64,000 nt of DNA from a virus (Duplodnaviria > Caudoviricetes), in the IMG/VR virus record IMGVR_UViG_3300005739_000025; one strand, given 5' to 3'. Each line of letters opens with the position of its first letter. The first letter of the stretch is position 1. The notes beneath the pieces were generated by a model. That model saw only the letters and a program-made list of their open reading frames with translations. It did no database searches and was not told the origin of the DNA. The position numbers were made by a program, and so were the translations under genes. Of this stretch, positions 1 through 23,102 are shown one piece after another.

Positions 1-2644
1 CACCCCTATTTGATATATCTACATCAACGTTAAACGCTCCTATATTTCTTGAATGTCTGTTATATCTAATAGGACCTATAGGGTTTAAGCCTGAACCATC
101 GCCACTTAATACTGCATTATATGCAGTTAAAGAATTAACTTCTATTCTATTTGCAGTAAAATTGTCTAGGTTGACATTTTCTAATGTAAAATTTTTTGTA
201 ACTAAATCAGTAGTAAATATTGATCTTGCGTAAATTGCGTTATTTGCGCTTAAACTATCAACCTCTAATGGTCCGAAGATTTTTCCAGATATAGGAGTAC
301 CCCATGAGCCTACCAAAAATTGATTACTAGCAGAAGCTGTTACGTTAATACCTAAACCTATTACATTGCTATATGTACTACTAGAACCCATTAAAGGTCC
401 ACCCGCGCTTGCACCTATATAGATATTTTGTAAACCTGTTGAATTACTTGAACCTGCAAAAGCTCCTAAAAATACGTTGTCACCACCGTTTGTAGTGTTA
501 AAGCCCGCTCTATCTCCTAATATTGTATTACTATTAGCGTTATTATTTGCAGCTGCACATGTACCTAATATAACGTTATTGTTACCAACATTATTAGAAA
601 ATCTTCCCGCTTGTAACCCTATTAAAACGTTATTGCAACCTGTTGTATTTCCACAACCTACTTCAGAGCCTATAAACACGTTATTGTTTGCTAATGTAGT
701 ATTGACACCAGCTCTTCTACCAAAAAATATGTTGCAAGTACCAACAGTTATATTAGCACCAGCCTCTCTTCCAATAAACAAGTTATCATTTCCAGCTAAA
801 GTTCTAGCATCAGAATTTGAATCTCTAAACCATGTATTAATGTTAAATAAATCTCTATTATATCTAAATGGTCCAATTGGGTTAATTTCCAAACCATCTC
901 CTGATAAGGTTCTTGCACTCAAGGTTCCTGTTACTAATCCCCCAGATAATGATAAGAAATCTGCTGAACTTAAGGCTGATAGTGTTGTAATTACCGTATC
1001 TAGATAAAACACTCTTACTACATGGGATAGAGATGTAAGAGATGTTGTATACATCTCGTATGAGTTTATTCTAGGTGCGAATAATTCTTCTGTAGCTGAA
1101 AATGTACCCCAGAATGTACCGTCATATCTTGATTGGGATCCAAAATCTGGGGCACCTACCACAAATCTATTATTTCTATCAGCAGCCGCGCTGCGTCCTA
1201 ACAATATACTGTTATTCCACCCTCTACTACTTGCGCTATACCCTATAACAATATTTGAAAAGCCTGGTTCTTTGTCCCATTGTTGGGAATGAGCGTATGG
1301 TCCTAATATAATATTATTATTACCACCACCTGATAGATATTCACCAGCTCCTGTACCAATAATTATATTATGATATGAACCTCTATCGCTTGGTCCAGAT
1401 GATCTAAAACCTGCATATGCTCCTATAATAATATTACCATAAGAGGTATTAAATTTGCCTGCTTGTGGTCCTATATGAATATTATTAGAGTTTTGAGTAA
1501 AACTTCCATACCCTATCGTATCTGTATTAATAATAGTATTATTAAAACCTGTTAAAGGGTATAAAGAATTTATTAAAACTTGGCCATCTCCATTTAGTAC
1601 TGTAATTTTTTCGCCAATTATTATATCATTACTACTAACAGCTGTTTTGTTAGTTCCAATTAATACAACATTTGTATTTCTACTAGAATTATTACCATAA
1701 CCTAAAATAACATTTTGAGAATTATTTACTAAGTGGTAACTACCTAATACAACGTTTCTTCTAACTGATGTGTTAATATTTCCAATATTCCAGCCAGATT
1801 CTCTACCAATATATATATTATCTGAACCAAGTTCATTAAATAAACCTGCGTTATAACCTATATAAACGTTATCGCTACTTAAGTTTCTAAATCCTGCGAA
1901 TTTACCAATGTTTATATTGTTGTTTCCTATTTCGTTAATAAAACCAGATTGATAACCTATACCTAAATTATCGTTGGCAGATATTGTAGCAAACGGTGAA
2001 GCGCAAACACCAAAATAAAAGTTATTACTACCACTTATAGGTAGATTAATGGTAAACATTCTAGCTGTACCAACTGGTCTGTTAAAGATAAGTTCCCCTA
2101 CAGGGTTTAAGTTTCTACCGTCACCGGAAAGAGTGTCAAAAGCAATAGTTTGTGATGATAAAGAATCAAATATTCCAAACTTAGCTTTAATGCCGCCTGC
2201 TCCACCACCTCCTAGGTCAAAGTTTAAAGCCGTTAAATTTCTAAAAAAGGCTTTATCAGCAGAGATAAAATTATCTACAAATAAATTTCCAGCTACTGTT
2301 AAGTTACCTGTAACTTCTTGATTTTCTGTTCTTCTGCTTACAAAACTTACACTAAGAGCTGAGAAGTAAGTAGCTATAATACTATAGGCGGAAATAGATT
2401 CAGCTGATAAAGTATTAACTACAAGGTTTTTTGTATCTATCTGTGAAAACTTTATCCACCCTCTTTCAGTACCCTGGTTATTAGACGAAAGAATATATGT
2501 ATCTGTTTGTTCTAAAGGTAAATTTAACGGCGCGCCTAAATTGGGTTCTACTAAATCTAAAGAAATCCATTTATACCTGCTTGCAATTGATTTTGCAGAT
2601 GCAGCTGGTATTAATAACGTTTTATTGGCTAAGGTGTTATTCAT
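1..2644 (-). CDS. Tail fibre/adhesin-like protein with G-x-x-(A/S)-G and N-x-x-I-G repeats (YadA-head-like); runs off the window edge
   Basis: ATG at 2644 overlaps the upstream stop (TAATG). The frame was translated at both ends and in part of the middle without meeting a stop (MNNTLANKTLLIP...; IGYNAGLFNELGSDNIYIGRESG). Absent from the ORF track, consistent with no stop inside the window. Confidence 0.75.
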   Translation of the reverse strand, partial: MNNTLANKTLLIPAASAKSIASRYKWISLDLVEPNLGAPLNLPLEQTDTYILSSNNQGTERGWIKFSQIDTKNLVVNTLSAESISAYSIIATYFSALSVSFVSRRTENQEVTGNLTVAGNLFVDNFISADKAFFRNLTALNFDLGGGGAGGIKAKFGIFDSLSSQTIAFDTLSGDGRNLNPVGELIFNRPVGTARMFTINLPISGSNNFYFGVCASPFATISANDNLGIGYQSGFINEIGNNNINIGKFAGFRNLSSDNVYIGYNAGLFNELGSDNIYIGRESGWNIGNINTSVRRNVVLGSYHLVNNSQNVILGYGNNSSRNTNVVLIGTNKTAVSSNDIIIGEKITVLNGDGQVLINSLYPLTGFNNTIINTDTIGYGSFTQNSNNIHIGPQAGKFNTSYGNIIIGAYAGFRSSGPSDRGSYHNIIIGTGAGEYLSGGGNNNIILGPYAHSQQWDKEPGFSNIVIGYSASSRGWNNSILLGRSAAADRNNRFVVGAPDFGSQSRYDGTFWGTFSATEELFAPRINSYEMYTTSLTSLSHVVRVFYLDTVITTLSALSSADFLSLSGGLVTGTLSARTLSGDGLEINPIGPFRYNRDLFNINTWFRDSNSDARTLAGNDNLFIGREAGANITVGTCNIFFGRRAGVNTTLANNNVFIGSEVGCGNTTGCNNVLIGLQAGRFSNNVGNNNVILGTCAAANNNANSNTILGDRAGFNTTNGGDNVFLGAFAGSSNSTGLQNIYIGASAGGPLMGSSSTYSNVIGLGINVTASASNQFLVGSWGTPISGKIFGPLEVDSLSANNAIYARSIFTTDLVTKNFTLENVNLDNFTANRIEVNSLTAYNAVLSGDGSGLNPIGPIRYNRHSRNIGAFNVDVDISNRG

Positions 2645-3051: not shown

Positions 3052-4911
3052 TTAAATATTACCCGCAATAGCTATACTAAAGGGTGTAATTGTTGTTAAA
3101 ATAGATCTCTGGAAAGTTTCACCTTCAATTGTACCTGTAGCTTGAACAATAGTTAAGCCTTGCCCAATTCTAAAGTCACCAAATTGGTTCGTTGAAGTGA
3201 AGAATACTCTCCCTTCATTATCGAATACAACTTCTTTTGTAACGTCTGTCTGGCCTCCGTTTTGGGGAACTGCTGATAACAATACTGTTCCCGTTCCTAT
3301 ATATTCAAGAGTATGTGCGGAGGCTGTAATTGTACTTCTTATATAAAACTTGACATTTGAATTTATATGATCTATTACAGTAATCCCTGATAAAGAACTA
3401 TCTAAAGTTGGAGCATAGTTAGCATCTAACACTATGCCGCATCTATATTTTGTACTGCCATCTATATCAGTATAAGGTGTAATAGGTGATGCGGATAATA
3501 TACTAAAATAATCATTGGAGTTGTAGGCTGTTAAAGTTTCAGAAACATTTAGAGGGTTTGTAAACTCTATAGCAAATATTTGACCAGGGTACGGTTGAAA
3601 ATCGTCTCTAAATTCTTGTTGCGCAGATTTTCCCGATAAATTTTCAATAAATATAGTATTAGTTAAACCACTAATTGAAGCTGCTAAATTTCCTAATAAG
3701 GTTGGTCTAGGTGATTTACCATATGATACAAGACCTAAATCACCGAACGAACAGTTAGACGTATTAATTGAGCACGTACCCCCAGATTCACAAATAACTC
3801 CTTCTGTACAGCATATGGTAAATGTAGAAACTAGCTGGGCGTAACCGTTTCTTACAATATGGATACCTTTGCCTCCTTCATTAAACTGAGTAAAAGAGTC
3901 CATAACCATAGAACGTAGAGGACCGTCCACCTTATATCCGTCGACTAATACACCTCCACCTGCATCGTTAGCGTTTGCAGAAGTTGCTTGTGTAATGCTA
4001 GAATTTCCTTGGGGGTACGGAGATGTTAAAGTATAAGCTTTATGTACGTTAGCTTCATAATACTCTGTCGTTAAGAGATCATCTGCATCAATATTTTCAA
4101 GCTCTGTAAAAAATGTTGAGTTTAACCCAGTAAAATATCTTCTTAAAAATGCAATTCTCGCTGGGTCTGTAATAATTTGACCAGGAAAATCTTTAGATAA
4201 ATCATCTGGATTGTTAAAACTATCGTATGTGGCTTTAAAATTATTTGGATTTCTTCTCCAATGCCCTTCAGCCCTAGCCGTAGCAGCAACTACTCTTGTG
4301 TCAGGATATTCTGGAACAGGTAAACCGTAATCTATCGATAGCTCTGGATAGGCAATTGCGTAAGATGGGTTTAAATGTCTTCTAAATGTTACACCCCAGA
4401 CATAACAACCATGGTTAACCCATATAATGTCATAAAATCTATTTTTAGGTATAATAGATACAGATCTTAAGTTATCTCCAATAATGGTGCATCGCGGTGG
4501 GAGATAAATTGGATTATCTTCTTCATAAGTACCGGTTCTAATAAAAATGTTTACTTGTCTAGAACCTATACCCCAAGCTGGTTTACCATAACCGTTTGCC
4601 TGACCTACTTGAGCTTCCAGAGCTGTATTCGCACCATCTCTAGAAATTTCTAAGGCCTTAGCACAAGCTCTTTTTAATGTTTTAAAAGCTCTATATTCAG
4701 ATCTACCAGAGTTTGTATCTTTACCGTTAGGGTTAACGTATAAAACTTCAGGGGCAGCTCTTAAATCTACACTTTTTAATAGTTCAATAGTAAGGTCAGA
4801 GATCTTAGTTCTGATCTCTTTATTAAAATCTCTATAACCTACTAAGTAGTCGTCCTGTAATAGATTTTGATTAGGTACATAATCAAAATCACTAAAATTC
4901 TTAAAAGGCAT
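3052..4911 (-). CDS. Virion structural protein with pectate-lyase-like beta-helix
   Basis: 619 aa. LYVNPNGKDTNSG...FKTLKRA, IRTGTYEEDNPI and SFTQFNEGGKG motifs typical of T4-like phage beta-helix proteins; CATAAATA late promoter upstream. Confidence 0.65.
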   Translation of the reverse strand: MPFKNFSDFDYVPNQNLLQDDYLVGYRDFNKEIRTKISDLTIELLKSVDLRAAPEVLYVNPNGKDTNSGRSEYRAFKTLKRACAKALEISRDGANTALEAQVGQANGYGKPAWGIGSRQVNIFIRTGTYEEDNPIYLPPRCTIIGDNLRSVSIIPKNRFYDIIWVNHGCYVWGVTFRRHLNPSYAIAYPELSIDYGLPVPEYPDTRVVAATARAEGHWRRNPNNFKATYDSFNNPDDLSKDFPGQIITDPARIAFLRRYFTGLNSTFFTELENIDADDLLTTEYYEANVHKAYTLTSPYPQGNSSITQATSANANDAGGGVLVDGYKVDGPLRSMVMDSFTQFNEGGKGIHIVRNGYAQLVSTFTICCTEGVICESGGTCSINTSNCSFGDLGLVSYGKSPRPTLLGNLAASISGLTNTIFIENLSGKSAQQEFRDDFQPYPGQIFAIEFTNPLNVSETLTAYNSNDYFSILSASPITPYTDIDGSTKYRCGIVLDANYAPTLDSSLSGITVIDHINSNVKFYIRSTITASAHTLEYIGTGTVLLSAVPQNGGQTDVTKEVVFDNEGRVFFTSTNQFGDFRIGQGLTIVQATGTIEGETFQRSILTTITPFSIAIAGNI

Positions 4912-18775: not shown

Positions 18776-19540
18776 ATGTTTTTTAAGAAAACCAAAACAC
18801 CCTATATAAAGTTTATTCCCATAGTCGAGGGTTTAAAAGAATTTATCCCCATAATACCAGCTAAAAGTTATTTACCTGATTGGTGGGAAAAAATAAACAT
18901 AAACGAAAATGTTAAATTTGCTAATAAACGTCCTGTTTCTACTGGTACAGTTAGAAAATGTCCAGGTATAATGGATTTTTTAAAAACAGGCTATATTATA
19001 CCCGCCTGGACTGATATATATATTACAGTTAAAGGTAGAGAAAGTATAGAATTTGAACTATCCGATAAAAGATTTAATGCTCGTATACACAGCAATGATC
19101 AATTTTTAAACTATATACCTGAACATTCAAAAACAGAGTATCTTTGGACTTTGAAGTTACAGAGTCCTTGGTTTATACAAACCCCACCAGGTTATAGTGT
19201 TATGTATATAAACCCGTATTATCACTTTAACAAATATTATGATATTGCCCCTGGTATACAAGATACAGATATATATCATGATTCCAACCAATTTTTGTTA
19301 ATTAAAAAAGAAGGAGAATTTTTAATAGAACGAGGTTCTCCACTTAGCATAGTTTTTCCTTTTAAACGAGAAGACTATGACTTTACGATGGAAGATTATG
19401 ATTTTTTTAAAACAGAGAAATATAAATCTAGAGAAGAATTTGTATCGTTTTCAAAATTTTCATCAATGCTTTCTTATAAAAAAGAACAACAAAAACAAAG
19501 AAAATGTCCTTTTTTATGGAATCATAGCTCAATCGGTTAG
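18776..19540 (+). CDS. Conserved phage protein (DUF6065-like), paralogue of 22109-22840; stop codon lies inside tRNA-Asp
   Basis: RKCPGIMDFLKTGYIIPAWTD, W.IQTPPGYS, PGIQDTD. Confidence 0.7.
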   Translation: MFFKKTKTPYIKFIPIVEGLKEFIPIIPAKSYLPDWWEKININENVKFANKRPVSTGTVRKCPGIMDFLKTGYIIPAWTDIYITVKGRESIEFELSDKRFNARIHSNDQFLNYIPEHSKTEYLWTLKLQSPWFIQTPPGYSVMYINPYYHFNKYYDIAPGIQDTDIYHDSNQFLLIKKEGEFLIERGSPLSIVFPFKREDYDFTMEDYDFFKTEKYKSREEFVSFSKFSSMLSYKKEQQKQRKCPFLWNHSSIG

Positions 19541-19678: not shown

Positions 19679-19755
19679 GCTCTGGAAGCTAAAGTAGTCG
19701 AAGCGTTAGTCTGCAAAACTTTCATTAGTCGGTGCGAGTCCGACCCAGAGCTCCA
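19679..19755 (+). tRNA. trnC: tRNA-Cys(GCA), non-canonical T-loop
   Basis: GCTCTGG/CCAGAGC-TCCA, loop CTGCAAA (weak anticodon stem), T-loop TGCGAGT. Confidence 0.8.
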
Positions 19756-19762
19756 TTTTATA

Positions 19763-20023
19763 GATCTGGCCGTAGCAAATGATATCCAGATCAGGGTGTG
19801 TTCCCTTTGCCTGTTAGTGTGTTGGGGGTGCTCATCTGGGCTAGTCGAGCTAGGCTACATAAAGCTATGACGCTATGCATTAGTACAACACAGGCTATTG
19901 GACGGAAGTATCTGGCTCCAGGCCAGACTCCGTTAAGGAAGGGACAAAATCCGGAACAAAACCCTTCAGCACTAATAATTTAGTAGACCCGTTATGCCTC
20001 TTAGCAATGCACACTTAACGGGT
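19763..20023 (+). ncRNA. Unassigned ~260-nt structured RNA inside the tRNA array
   Basis: GC-rich, no credible ORF, at least six stems (GATCTGG/CCAGATC, GTGTTG/CAACAC, TCTGGC/GCCAGA, GAAGGG/CCCTTC, ACCCGTTA/TAACGGGT). Confidence 0.55.
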
Positions 20024-20028
20024 ATTTT

Positions 20029-20099
20029 CCCTCCTTAGTATAGTAGCATTACAATCGGTTGATAACCGATAGAACTAGGGGCAGTACCTAGAGGAGGGA
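20029..20099 (+). tRNA. trnI: tRNA-Ile(GAT), non-canonical T-loop
   Basis: CCCTCCT/AGGAGGG, ATCGG-TTGATAA-CCGAT, T-loop GGCAGTA. Confidence 0.85.
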
Positions 20100-20135: not shown

Positions 20136-20351
20136 ATGTACGAGACCGATCTCACATATAAGAGAAAAAAATATAAAATTAAAATAAAAACCATTTTCGA
20201 GGTAGGGGATGGTAAAGAACATTATGATTTAGAAGTCTCAACAAATAAAAGAATGTCTGGTAATGAATTTTTAGCGCTAAGAAAATATCTAGAAGATGAG
20301 GGTTATATAGAACAAGCAAGAATTTATAATGAGGAACTTTATGCCGATTAA
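20136..20351 (+). CDS. Hypothetical protein
   Basis: 71-aa ORF with a sigma70-like promoter upstream. Confidence 0.55.
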   Translation: MYETDLTYKRKKYKIKIKTIFEVGDGKEHYDLEVSTNKRMSGNEFLALRKYLEDEGYIEQARIYNEELYAD

Positions 20352-20650: not shown

Positions 20651-20726
20651 TTGGAGCAACCACAAACCCACTGGTATTAGGCGTTGAGAGTAATTGGAAA
20701 GCGCTCTCGAGTAAGTCCTGCTCCAA
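20651..20726 (+). ncRNA. Unassigned tRNA-sized structured element A
   Basis: TTGGAGCA/TGCTCCAA closing stem, internal GAGAG/CTCTC, flanked by T-tracts; resembles 21552-21617. Confidence 0.45.
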
Positions 20727-22108: not shown

Positions 22109-22840
22109 ATGTTTAATTTGTTTAAAAAGGAAATAGAATTTTTTCCAACAACTTTAGAAATAGATAAAGTAGCTCCTATTGTTCCAGCTAGCAAATTTCT
22201 CCCAAAATGGTGGACGGATATTGATCCAAATAAACATGTAAATTTAGTAAATAATGTACCTGTTATAAGAGGCAATATTAAAAAATGTCCAGGTGTATCA
22301 GATTTTTTAACTAAGGGTTTTATATTACCCGCCTGGACAGATTTTTATTTTTGCTATGAAAATGGTAAAATGAAAAAAATCTCATCGTTACAATCCCACG
22401 GAATAATACACCAACCAGACACATCATTTATTGATTTTTTACCAGATAATATAAAATTTAAAAAACCCATTTCATATAAATTATTAACCCCCTGGCTTAT
22501 CAAAACCCCTCCCGGCTATAGCAGTTTAATTTTAAACCCAACATTTCATTTTAACGATAATTTCGACACTATGCCCGGTATACTCGATACCGACATTTTT
22601 CATACCCTATCTATTGAAATTCTAGTTAAAGAATCAAAAACTTTTACTATACCTTTTAACACTCCATTATGTATAATAGTTCCTTTTAAAAGAAATAAAT
22701 TTAAATATAAAATTAATTTAAATAAAGCAGTAATGGAGAAATTGTCTTCTCTTTCAAATCTTATATCTTTTGCAAAATTTTCTTCTAGCGCTATGTATAA
22801 TTATGTAAGAAGATCAAAATGCCCTTTTAATAATAAATAA
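22109..22840 (+). CDS. Conserved phage protein (DUF6065-like), paralogue of 18776-19540
   Basis: KKCPGVSDFLTKGFILPAWTD, W.IKTPPGYS, PGILDTD, C-terminal KCPF. Confidence 0.7.
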   Translation: MFNLFKKEIEFFPTTLEIDKVAPIVPASKFLPKWWTDIDPNKHVNLVNNVPVIRGNIKKCPGVSDFLTKGFILPAWTDFYFCYENGKMKKISSLQSHGIIHQPDTSFIDFLPDNIKFKKPISYKLLTPWLIKTPPGYSSLILNPTFHFNDNFDTMPGILDTDIFHTLSIEILVKESKTFTIPFNTPLCIIVPFKRNKFKYKINLNKAVMEKLSSLSNLISFAKFSSSAMYNYVRRSKCPFNNK

Positions 22841-22844
22841 TTTT

Positions 22845-23102
22845 ATGAATTTTGAAATTTTAATAAATGACTTATTAAAAAAGAATTATAAAATTAATGA
22901 GCAGTTAGCTAAAGGTAAAACTTTAGAAGATATATCTAAAGAGACAGAAACATCAAAAGAAATATTAAATAAAGAACTTAAAAAAGGAATAGAAATAGAA
23001 AAAGAACATACACCATCAGAAAAAAAAGCTAAAACCATAGCTAAAGATCATCTTATTGAAAATCCTAAATATTATACTAAATTAAAGAAAGTAGGATTAT
23101 AG
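22845..23102 (+). CDS. DUF5661-like small protein
   Basis: ELKKGIEIEKEH...IAKDHL.E.PKYYTKL. Confidence 0.65.
   Translation: MNFEILINDLLKKNYKINEQLAKGKTLEDISKETETSKEILNKELKKGIEIEKEHTPSEKKAKTIAKDHLIENPKYYTKLKKVGL

Follow-up and report, generated by a model that had tools for sequence, protein, structure and literature searches.

What occupies the 261-nt stretch between two tRNA genes (positions 19763–20023) in a 64,000-nt piece of phage DNA, analysed as a whole and hereafter called the window? A preliminary description had read it as one unassigned, multi-domain RNA of about 260 nt with GC-rich stems, no credible open reading frame and a switch-like alternative pairing. The GC content of the stretch is 48% against 34% for the window, so the stems are GC-rich in relative terms only. 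Rfam models supported both flanking genes as real tRNAs (Table 1), as had been proposed, and ARAGORN called neither of them. The D and T loops of both tRNAs are non-canonical, and the anticodon stem of tRNA-Cys carries two U-U mismatches. The window is part of a large T4-like phage from fresh water, with a T4-type portal and many tRNA genes, and the RNA lies among the phage's own tRNA genes; the closest cultured matches to the portal are only about 32% identical. Only two envelope genes, a prepilin-type gene and a PEP-CTERM-like gene with nearest clusters mostly in Verrucomicrobiota, bear on the host, and they suggest that it belongs to this phylum.

Table 1. Features of the interval between and including tRNA-Cys and tRNA-Ile, in window coordinates
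Feature	Pairing segments or detail	Position	Strand	Evidence
tRNA-Cys(GCA)	encoded CCA to 19755	19679–19752	+	Rfam scan, 42 bits
Core structured ncRNA	about 212 nt	19763–19974	+	13 distinct homologues; no Rfam match
P1 hairpin	19763–69 with 19786–92	19763–19792	+	forms in 14/14
Kissing helix	19772–76 (P1 loop) with 19854–58 (P3 loop), 5 bp	19772–19858	+	compensatory changes
P2 stem	19794–805 with 19826–37	19794–19837	+	duplex in 14/14
Pseudoknot PK1	19809–14 and 19821–24 with 19886–95, 6-nt bulge	19809–19895	+	
Candidate pseudoknot PK2	bulged 19815–18 with last four bases, 19971–74	19815–19974	+	
P3 stem	19840–51 with 19863–78	19840–19878	+	two-sided changes
P4 hairpin		19901–19934	+	pair probabilities, covariation
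P5 hairpin	19938–43 with 19962–67	19938–19967	+	two-sided changes
Self-complementary hexamer	predicted symmetric intermolecular kissing site	19950–19955	+	five variants
Weak linker hairpin	19971–75 with 19980–84	19971–19984	+	predicted
Optional abiF-like (AbiFr-type) hairpin	toxin gene absent	19987–20023	+	RF03085, 35.1 bits
tRNA-Ile(GAT)	non-canonical elbow	20029–20099	+	Rfam scan, 45.5 bits

Family, boundaries and neighbours of the core RNA

The first homologue of the whole stretch (L004) came from a pattern scan for the loop of the abiF-like hairpin, and patterns drawn from four parts of the RNA converged on the same 13 IMG/VR loci, with none added. In pattern scans of metagenomes and genomes the matches listed were mostly chance, at least two of them (L219 and L225, both from metagenomes) being true homologues, and these scans give no basis for calling the core absent from cells. 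After removal of two duplicates the family comprised 14 distinct sequences including the window, with pairwise identities of 60–98% (mean 74%); the homologues are 64–87% identical to the window sequence, and 79 columns, unpaired ones included, are invariant. The carriers are T4-like phages of about 200 kb, in which the RNA lies within or beside tRNA arrays. It is found once in each of five whole records; two of these are near-complete (195 and 211 kb) and have portals about 50% identical to that of the window.

Conservation stops sharply at 19974, and the sequence that follows is the abiF hairpin in seven members and a tRNA or spacer in the other seven. On the 5' side, a tRNA CCA stands 7–10 nt upstream of the core in 7 of the 14 members (in the window, tRNA-Cys ends 7 nt before the core), and elsewhere a sigma-70-like promoter lies 5–10 nt upstream (five clear and two weak cases). 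No protein gene is a fixed neighbour among the 14 loci. The sharp ends, the variable 3' neighbours and the missing fixed protein gene together indicate a stand-alone gene of about 212 nt followed by an optional cassette. A multi-domain structured noncoding RNA, as first described, was thus borne out, but it consists of two elements, the core and a 37-nt 3' cassette; the idea of a single 260-nt unit was not upheld, since the last 37 nt are separable, match the Rfam abiF model and are missing from 7 of the 13 homologues. The stretch was rightly judged to be without a credible reading frame: a single 61-aa frame (19798–19983) has stops in 12 of the 13 homologues, and the thirteenth lacks a start codon. 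At the level of sequence comparison, the 14 members establish conservation, secondary structure, boundaries, independence of the cassette and conserved self-complementarity.

Several other elements were noticed around the RNA. Two small ORFs (20136–20351 and 22845–23102) each occur near it in 5 of 14 loci, at variable positions, and a 71-aa ORF near the RNA returned no loci when used as a scan query. Within the tRNA array, two ORFs of about 250 aa, 18776–19540 (no match in a Pfam scan) and 22109–22840, look like paralogues by eye, and a closed hairpin element of tRNA size between tRNA-Phe and tRNA-His (20651–20726) gave no Rfam match at the gathering level.

An Rfam scan had been suggested for the stretch. 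At relaxed thresholds its sole non-tRNA match was abiF, at 19988–20023. No family matched the core of the window or of ten homologues, and the models for tmRNA, RNase P, SRP, riboswitches and ribozymes matched neither the stretch nor the homologues scanned, in line with the earlier remark that hallmarks of the first three are absent. The same scan found a genuine tmRNA elsewhere in L150, so it works on these phages; in this near-complete 211-kb record the tmRNA gene (3176–3634, minus strand) precedes the core RNA by about 0.9 kb. The label "unassigned" accordingly holds for the 212 nt of the core, but not for the last 37 nt, which resemble a known motif at a score below its cut-off.

Other searches gave a similar picture. 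With three family members as queries, blastn against 50,697 cultured phage records gave nothing or chance matches of at most 40 nt, and the core model, run without a positive control on 150 genomes from the likely host phylum, found no match. No published description of the core was found in the literature, candidate-RNA catalogues outside Rfam lying beyond the scope of the search. Among candidates that were set aside, the weak model matches L264, presumably a DNA-polymerase-like coding sequence, and L311 have neither the fold nor the tRNAs, L451–L454 are chance matches, and RNase P-like and HDV/theta-like readings of the RNA were dropped on the Rfam results and loop lengths. The core represents a structured phage RNA family that is apparently undescribed, and we take it, with high confidence, to be a real, stable RNA.

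Expression had also been named as something to check. Contigs from four freshwater metatranscriptome studies represent relatives about 95% alike and span 19791/97 to 19945–68, and in two RNA-library contigs the core is joined straight to tRNA-Ile, the abiF cassette being skipped. As these contigs were selected for containing core words, may include DNA and are unreadable as to ends, strand and level, they offer only a hint that relatives of the core are transcribed. The flanking ORFs and the abiF hairpin are without RNA-library cover, which was given no weight.

Covarying fold and palindromic loop of the core

The folding energy of 19763–20023 alone is not significant (z about −1.6), so the structural claim rests on covariation, and the search for homologues and covariation, likewise suggested at the outset, yielded both. 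Five stems, P1 to P5, fold in every one of the 14 members. In the unedited MAFFT alignment, 98.4% of the 616 cells of 44 named pairs are paired, and 17 of the 44 pairs show two-sided change, versus 2–5 (or 0) with the partners slid. P1 has two-sided changes at four of seven pairs in the hand-adjusted alignment, and its loop provides the 5' strand of the kiss with the P3 loop. In this kiss, pair 19773/19857 is U-A in five sequences and C-G in nine, and pair 19776/19854 is flipped to G-C in L155; cis and trans forms of the kiss are indistinguishable by covariation. The P2 duplex has energies of −8.7 to −16.3 kcal/mol across the 14 members, with G-C or A-U at 19798/19833, and encloses an invariant 17-nt loop segment. 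P3 has 5 of 11 pairs changed on both sides and 98.7% of its cells paired. The first five pairs of P4 have probabilities of 0.87–0.99, and three of its five upper pairs covary. In P5, three of six pairs show two-sided changes, and the loop is 18 nt long in all members. Eight of the ten PK1 pairs are invariant, and 19824/19886 covaries (G-C in seven, A-U in five); the two strands of PK2 are complementary and invariant in 14/14, hence without covariation. Invariance makes PK2 and most of PK1 uninformative, and we only infer that PK2 pairs in the core.

A tree-aware G-test of our own was applied to the hand-adjusted alignment, in which the palindrome columns had been left untouched. When only the 70 proposed pairs were counted, eight canonical ones reached E<0.05; over all 21,945 pairs, 19952/19953 alone beat the null. 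With 14 sequences the test has little power, and shared tree splits let many non-structural pairs score as high as helix pairs. The unfiltered all-pairs list was too noisy and was discarded.

The pair 19952/19953, which ranked first of the 21,945 (E=0.03), is formed by the adjacent central bases of a self-complementary hexamer placed exactly in the middle of the P5 loop. This covarying palindrome is the most informative feature of the locus and had gone unmentioned in the preliminary description. It occurs as CCUAGG in five members, UCCGGA in four, UCUAGA in three, and CUCGAG and UCUAGG (with wobble pairs) in one each, which amounts to five changes on the tree with 42 of 42 cells paired and all three of its pairs changed on both sides. 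Because adjacent bases are unable to pair within a single strand, the partner is expected to be a second molecule. A DNA-level protein site was considered and rejected, since the hexamer takes five sequences with nothing but self-complementarity in common, which is not expected of a protein target. The P5 palindrome likely points to RNA–RNA homodimerisation as in OLE and GOLLD, for which covariation of adjacent loop bases agreed with cryo-EM bridges (PMC12286853), and a physical dimer of the core RNA is very probable on this comparative evidence. Several of the hexamer variants would cross-pair poorly, and the five natural variants would therefore constitute a built-in test of self-assembly.

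The abiF-like cassette and the alternative pairing

The hairpin at 19987–20023 scored 35.1 bits (E=1e-4) against the model of the abiF motif (RF03085, also AbiFr or RCd22), below the gathering score of 37. It aligns over all 37 model positions with no broken pair and has the outer stem, the inner 3-bp stem, the conserved loop and the 3' bulge of the motif; in relatives the stem varies with pairing retained. The cassette occurs in 7 of the 14 core family members, the window included. The abiF RNA motif restrains AbiF/Abi_2 (PF07751), a HEPN RNase for which it is the antitoxin, in cis and trans (10.1101/2025.04.15.648962; PMC13064643). Among 201 genomes of the likely host phylum, 18 carry Abi_2 genes; of 12 such loci, 6 are preceded by a hairpin scoring 30–43 bits. 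Since these toxin-linked host copies bracket the score of the phage hairpin, the missed cut-off is weak counter-evidence. The phage hairpin also shares the 5' flank type and the 3' U run of the host copies. One genome of this phylum (G203) has nine Abi_2 matches.

The likeness to AbiF type III systems is limited to this hairpin, which differs from them in being single-copy and in lacking the toxin gene. No Abi_2 HEPN toxin gene lies directly downstream, where tRNA-Ile is found instead; AbiF has no credible match in the window (the strongest, 20% identical, has E=0.008) and none in five related phage records, two of them near-complete. More widely, none of 50 hairpin-bearing viral records encodes Abi_2, the 17 that are at least 90% complete included, and a HEPN-motif ORF stood directly behind 0 of 111 distinct viral hairpins, 34 of which lie within 400 nt of a tRNA. 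Viral abiF-like hairpins (L001–L119, IMG/VR) are almost always orphan in appearance, and in 20 of the 111 a tRNA starts shortly downstream, most often tRNA-Arg. Orphan phage abiF as such is not new, as a copy among tRNAs has already been annotated in cyanophage S-CREM1 (PMC9964418); we found no tests of orphan phage copies as decoys in the literature.

A decoy role would be the simplest reading of a toxin-less abiF hairpin. Phage antitoxin mimics of ToxIN provide a precedent for a phage RNA imitating a type III antitoxin (Blower et al. 2012, as cited in PMC13064643), although they differ in toxin family and RNA fold. We consider it probable that the hairpin would serve as an antitoxin decoy against the host AbiF/Abi_2 RNase. 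That it is merely a terminator or a processing mark seems unlikely. The short U run behind it, the U tracts behind host copies and the score under the gathering cut-off fit such a reading, but the U run is only four bases long and, with a tRNA starting 5 nt downstream, read-through would be required. Across the 111 viral copies, moreover, the loop is conserved and the stem variable, although part of this conservation is expected, as the copies had been retrieved by their loop. The hairpin had at first looked like domain V of a group II intron, a reading abandoned after the abiF match. The toxin-less hairpin would also allow a direct test of RNA-based counter-defence against the ancestor of Cas13 in a poorly studied host phylum.

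Some variation of the cassette was also observed. In L148 and L150 the abiF loop has a 6-nt duplication-like insertion and scores fall to 14–20 bits; one host copy (L459) has a longer loop too. A third cassette of about 62 nt, with nested stems and A-rich internal loops similar to the flanks of the P5 loop, lies between the abiF hairpin and tRNA-Ile in L004 (about 1890–1953, plus strand), L148, L149, L150, L219 and L225; it is not in the window and has no Rfam match.

The preliminary description had further proposed that the whole 260 nt act as one conformational switch, in which the 3' hairpin (19987–94/20016–23) competes with a pairing of 19930–37 with 20014–21. Both 8-bp pairings are present in the window's phage where described, and the 5' half of the alternative one is the 3' strand of P4. 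All eight of its pairs form only in the window, however, with 4–6 of 8 in all 13 homologues; even L219, which has an identical 5' octamer and the abiF hairpin, leaves it incomplete, and the 3' partner is missing in seven homologues and two RNA-library relatives. Forcing the pairing costs 7.9 kcal/mol, its ensemble probability is about 0, and 33% of dinucleotide shuffles hold a perfect 8-bp stem. The switch, ruled out by non-conservation, energy cost and shuffle frequency, has virtually no chance of being real, and the alternative pairing is present but coincidental. A better candidate for alternative pairing is the linker hairpin 19971–84, predicted in six of the seven abiF-bearing members at −0.6 to −2.3 kcal/mol, which in the precursor would form at the expense of PK2, whose 3' strand it would hide.

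Possible roles of the core and likeness to known RNAs

The explanation that we favour overall, with reasonable confidence, is a stand-alone phage noncoding RNA forming a palindrome-mediated dimer, accompanied by an independent abiF-like decoy cassette. In this proposal the core would be released from the tRNA-operon transcript after 3' processing of tRNA-Cys, or, in other members, transcribed from a promoter of its own. It would fold into a compact, knotted structure comprising P1–P5, the loop–loop kiss, PK1 and probably PK2, with P5 exposed and its palindromic loop pairing with its counterpart on another molecule. The resulting two-fold symmetric, RNA-only dimer would behave as do manA, ROOL and GOLLD, the RNAs in phage tRNA arrays that assemble with themselves. 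Its likeliest task in infection would be that of a two-handed, stable scaffold or decoy for a protein of the host or the phage, such as a defence RNase that is itself dimeric. The hairpin downstream, as a separate cassette, would mimic the antitoxin and silence the host AbiF/Abi_2 RNase. The scaffold or decoy role of the core itself is a tentative suggestion.

The core might instead build a higher-order cage or ring, comparable to manA decamers and 60-mers or ROOL/GOLLD half-shells, if the P1/P3 kiss (perhaps also PK1 or PK2) were intermolecular and formed a daisy chain while the palindrome joined two rings. The core does have both a heterologous and a symmetric kissing pair, manA RNAs of less than 200 nt build pentamers via heterologous kisses (10.64898/2026.07.01.735769), a ROOL kiss first taken as tertiary turned out to be intermolecular (PMC12286853), and manA too lies between tRNAs in S-CREM1. 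Covariation is blind to cis versus trans, however, and the core has no sequence or model similarity to manA, so that we regard this arrangement as rather unlikely. Still more speculative, and doubtful at present, is a short phage RNA of new fold that assembles a closed protein-free oligomer, with rings formed via the P1/P3 loop kiss and joined through the palindrome, and so displays several anti-defence decoys at once; if this were true, a dimer with the abiF hairpin attached would offer two copies to the homodimeric AbiF RNase.

Catalysis or operon control would make dimerisation secondary or superfluous. The knotted compact core with its 79 invariant columns and its position next to a tRNA 3' end in half of the members would suit a ribozyme or processing RNA of a new kind that cleaves itself or helps the tRNA operon to mature, and HYER1 and HYER5 also dimerise via palindromic pairing (PMC12990946). 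We think such a function improbable, as no Rfam ribozyme or intron model matched in 11 members, half of the members start at a promoter with no upstream tRNA, and the P1 loop, read by eye, is too short for an HDV/theta fold. A cis-acting element of the tRNA operon that works on the nascent RNA as an antiterminator or transcript stabiliser is also improbable: in up to 7 of 14 members the core is transcribed first, with more tRNA genes or other small genes behind it, but it lies mid-operon in the other seven, the genes downstream vary freely and a cis element requires no self-complementary loop.

Among known RNAs, the core resembles manA, ROOL and GOLLD in setting and kissing loops and belongs to none of them. 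Like the core, manA (RF01745) is a multi-hairpin RNA of about 200 nt between tRNA genes of T4-like aquatic phages, and it self-assembles by loop–loop kisses into pentamer-based cages of up to a 60-mer (10.64898/2026.07.01.735769); in S-CREM1 an abiF hairpin is also near manA. The core differs in helix order, in its symmetric palindromic loop and in the likely host phylum. Neither the window nor ten homologues matched the manA Rfam model at E≤10, HMM comparison showed no similarity, and the core covariance model did not match S-CREM1 manA. ROOL (RF03087) and GOLLD (RF02032) are likewise phage or prophage RNAs near tRNA islands, pseudoknotted, with symmetric kissing loops (PMC12286853) and no known protein partner, but they are two and a half to four times longer (550–800+ versus 212 nt), their models do not match the core, and for the core a cage is hypothetical. 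OLE and ARRPOF are RNA-only homodimers held through kissing loops, the latter, with several pseudoknots, being 255 nt long and so close to the core in size (PMC12990946). The dimer of the core is predicted, the core matches neither model, and those RNAs are chromosomal or plasmid-borne, outside phage tRNA arrays.

Closer to the genomic setting, T4 rnaC and rnaD are stable RNAs other than tRNAs, transcribed together with the tRNAs of a T4-like cluster; to our knowledge they have no known function. They are shorter (139 and 119 nt), and the core model did not match them. With the ornate self-assembling RNAs as a class (OLE, ROOL, GOLLD, ARRPOF and manA) the core shares extensive covarying structure with pseudoknots or kissing loops and a symmetric loop with adjacent palindromic covariation. 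Natural RNA-only oligomers are few, and the members of this family are small enough to be transcribed whole, which makes them a ready cryo-EM target.
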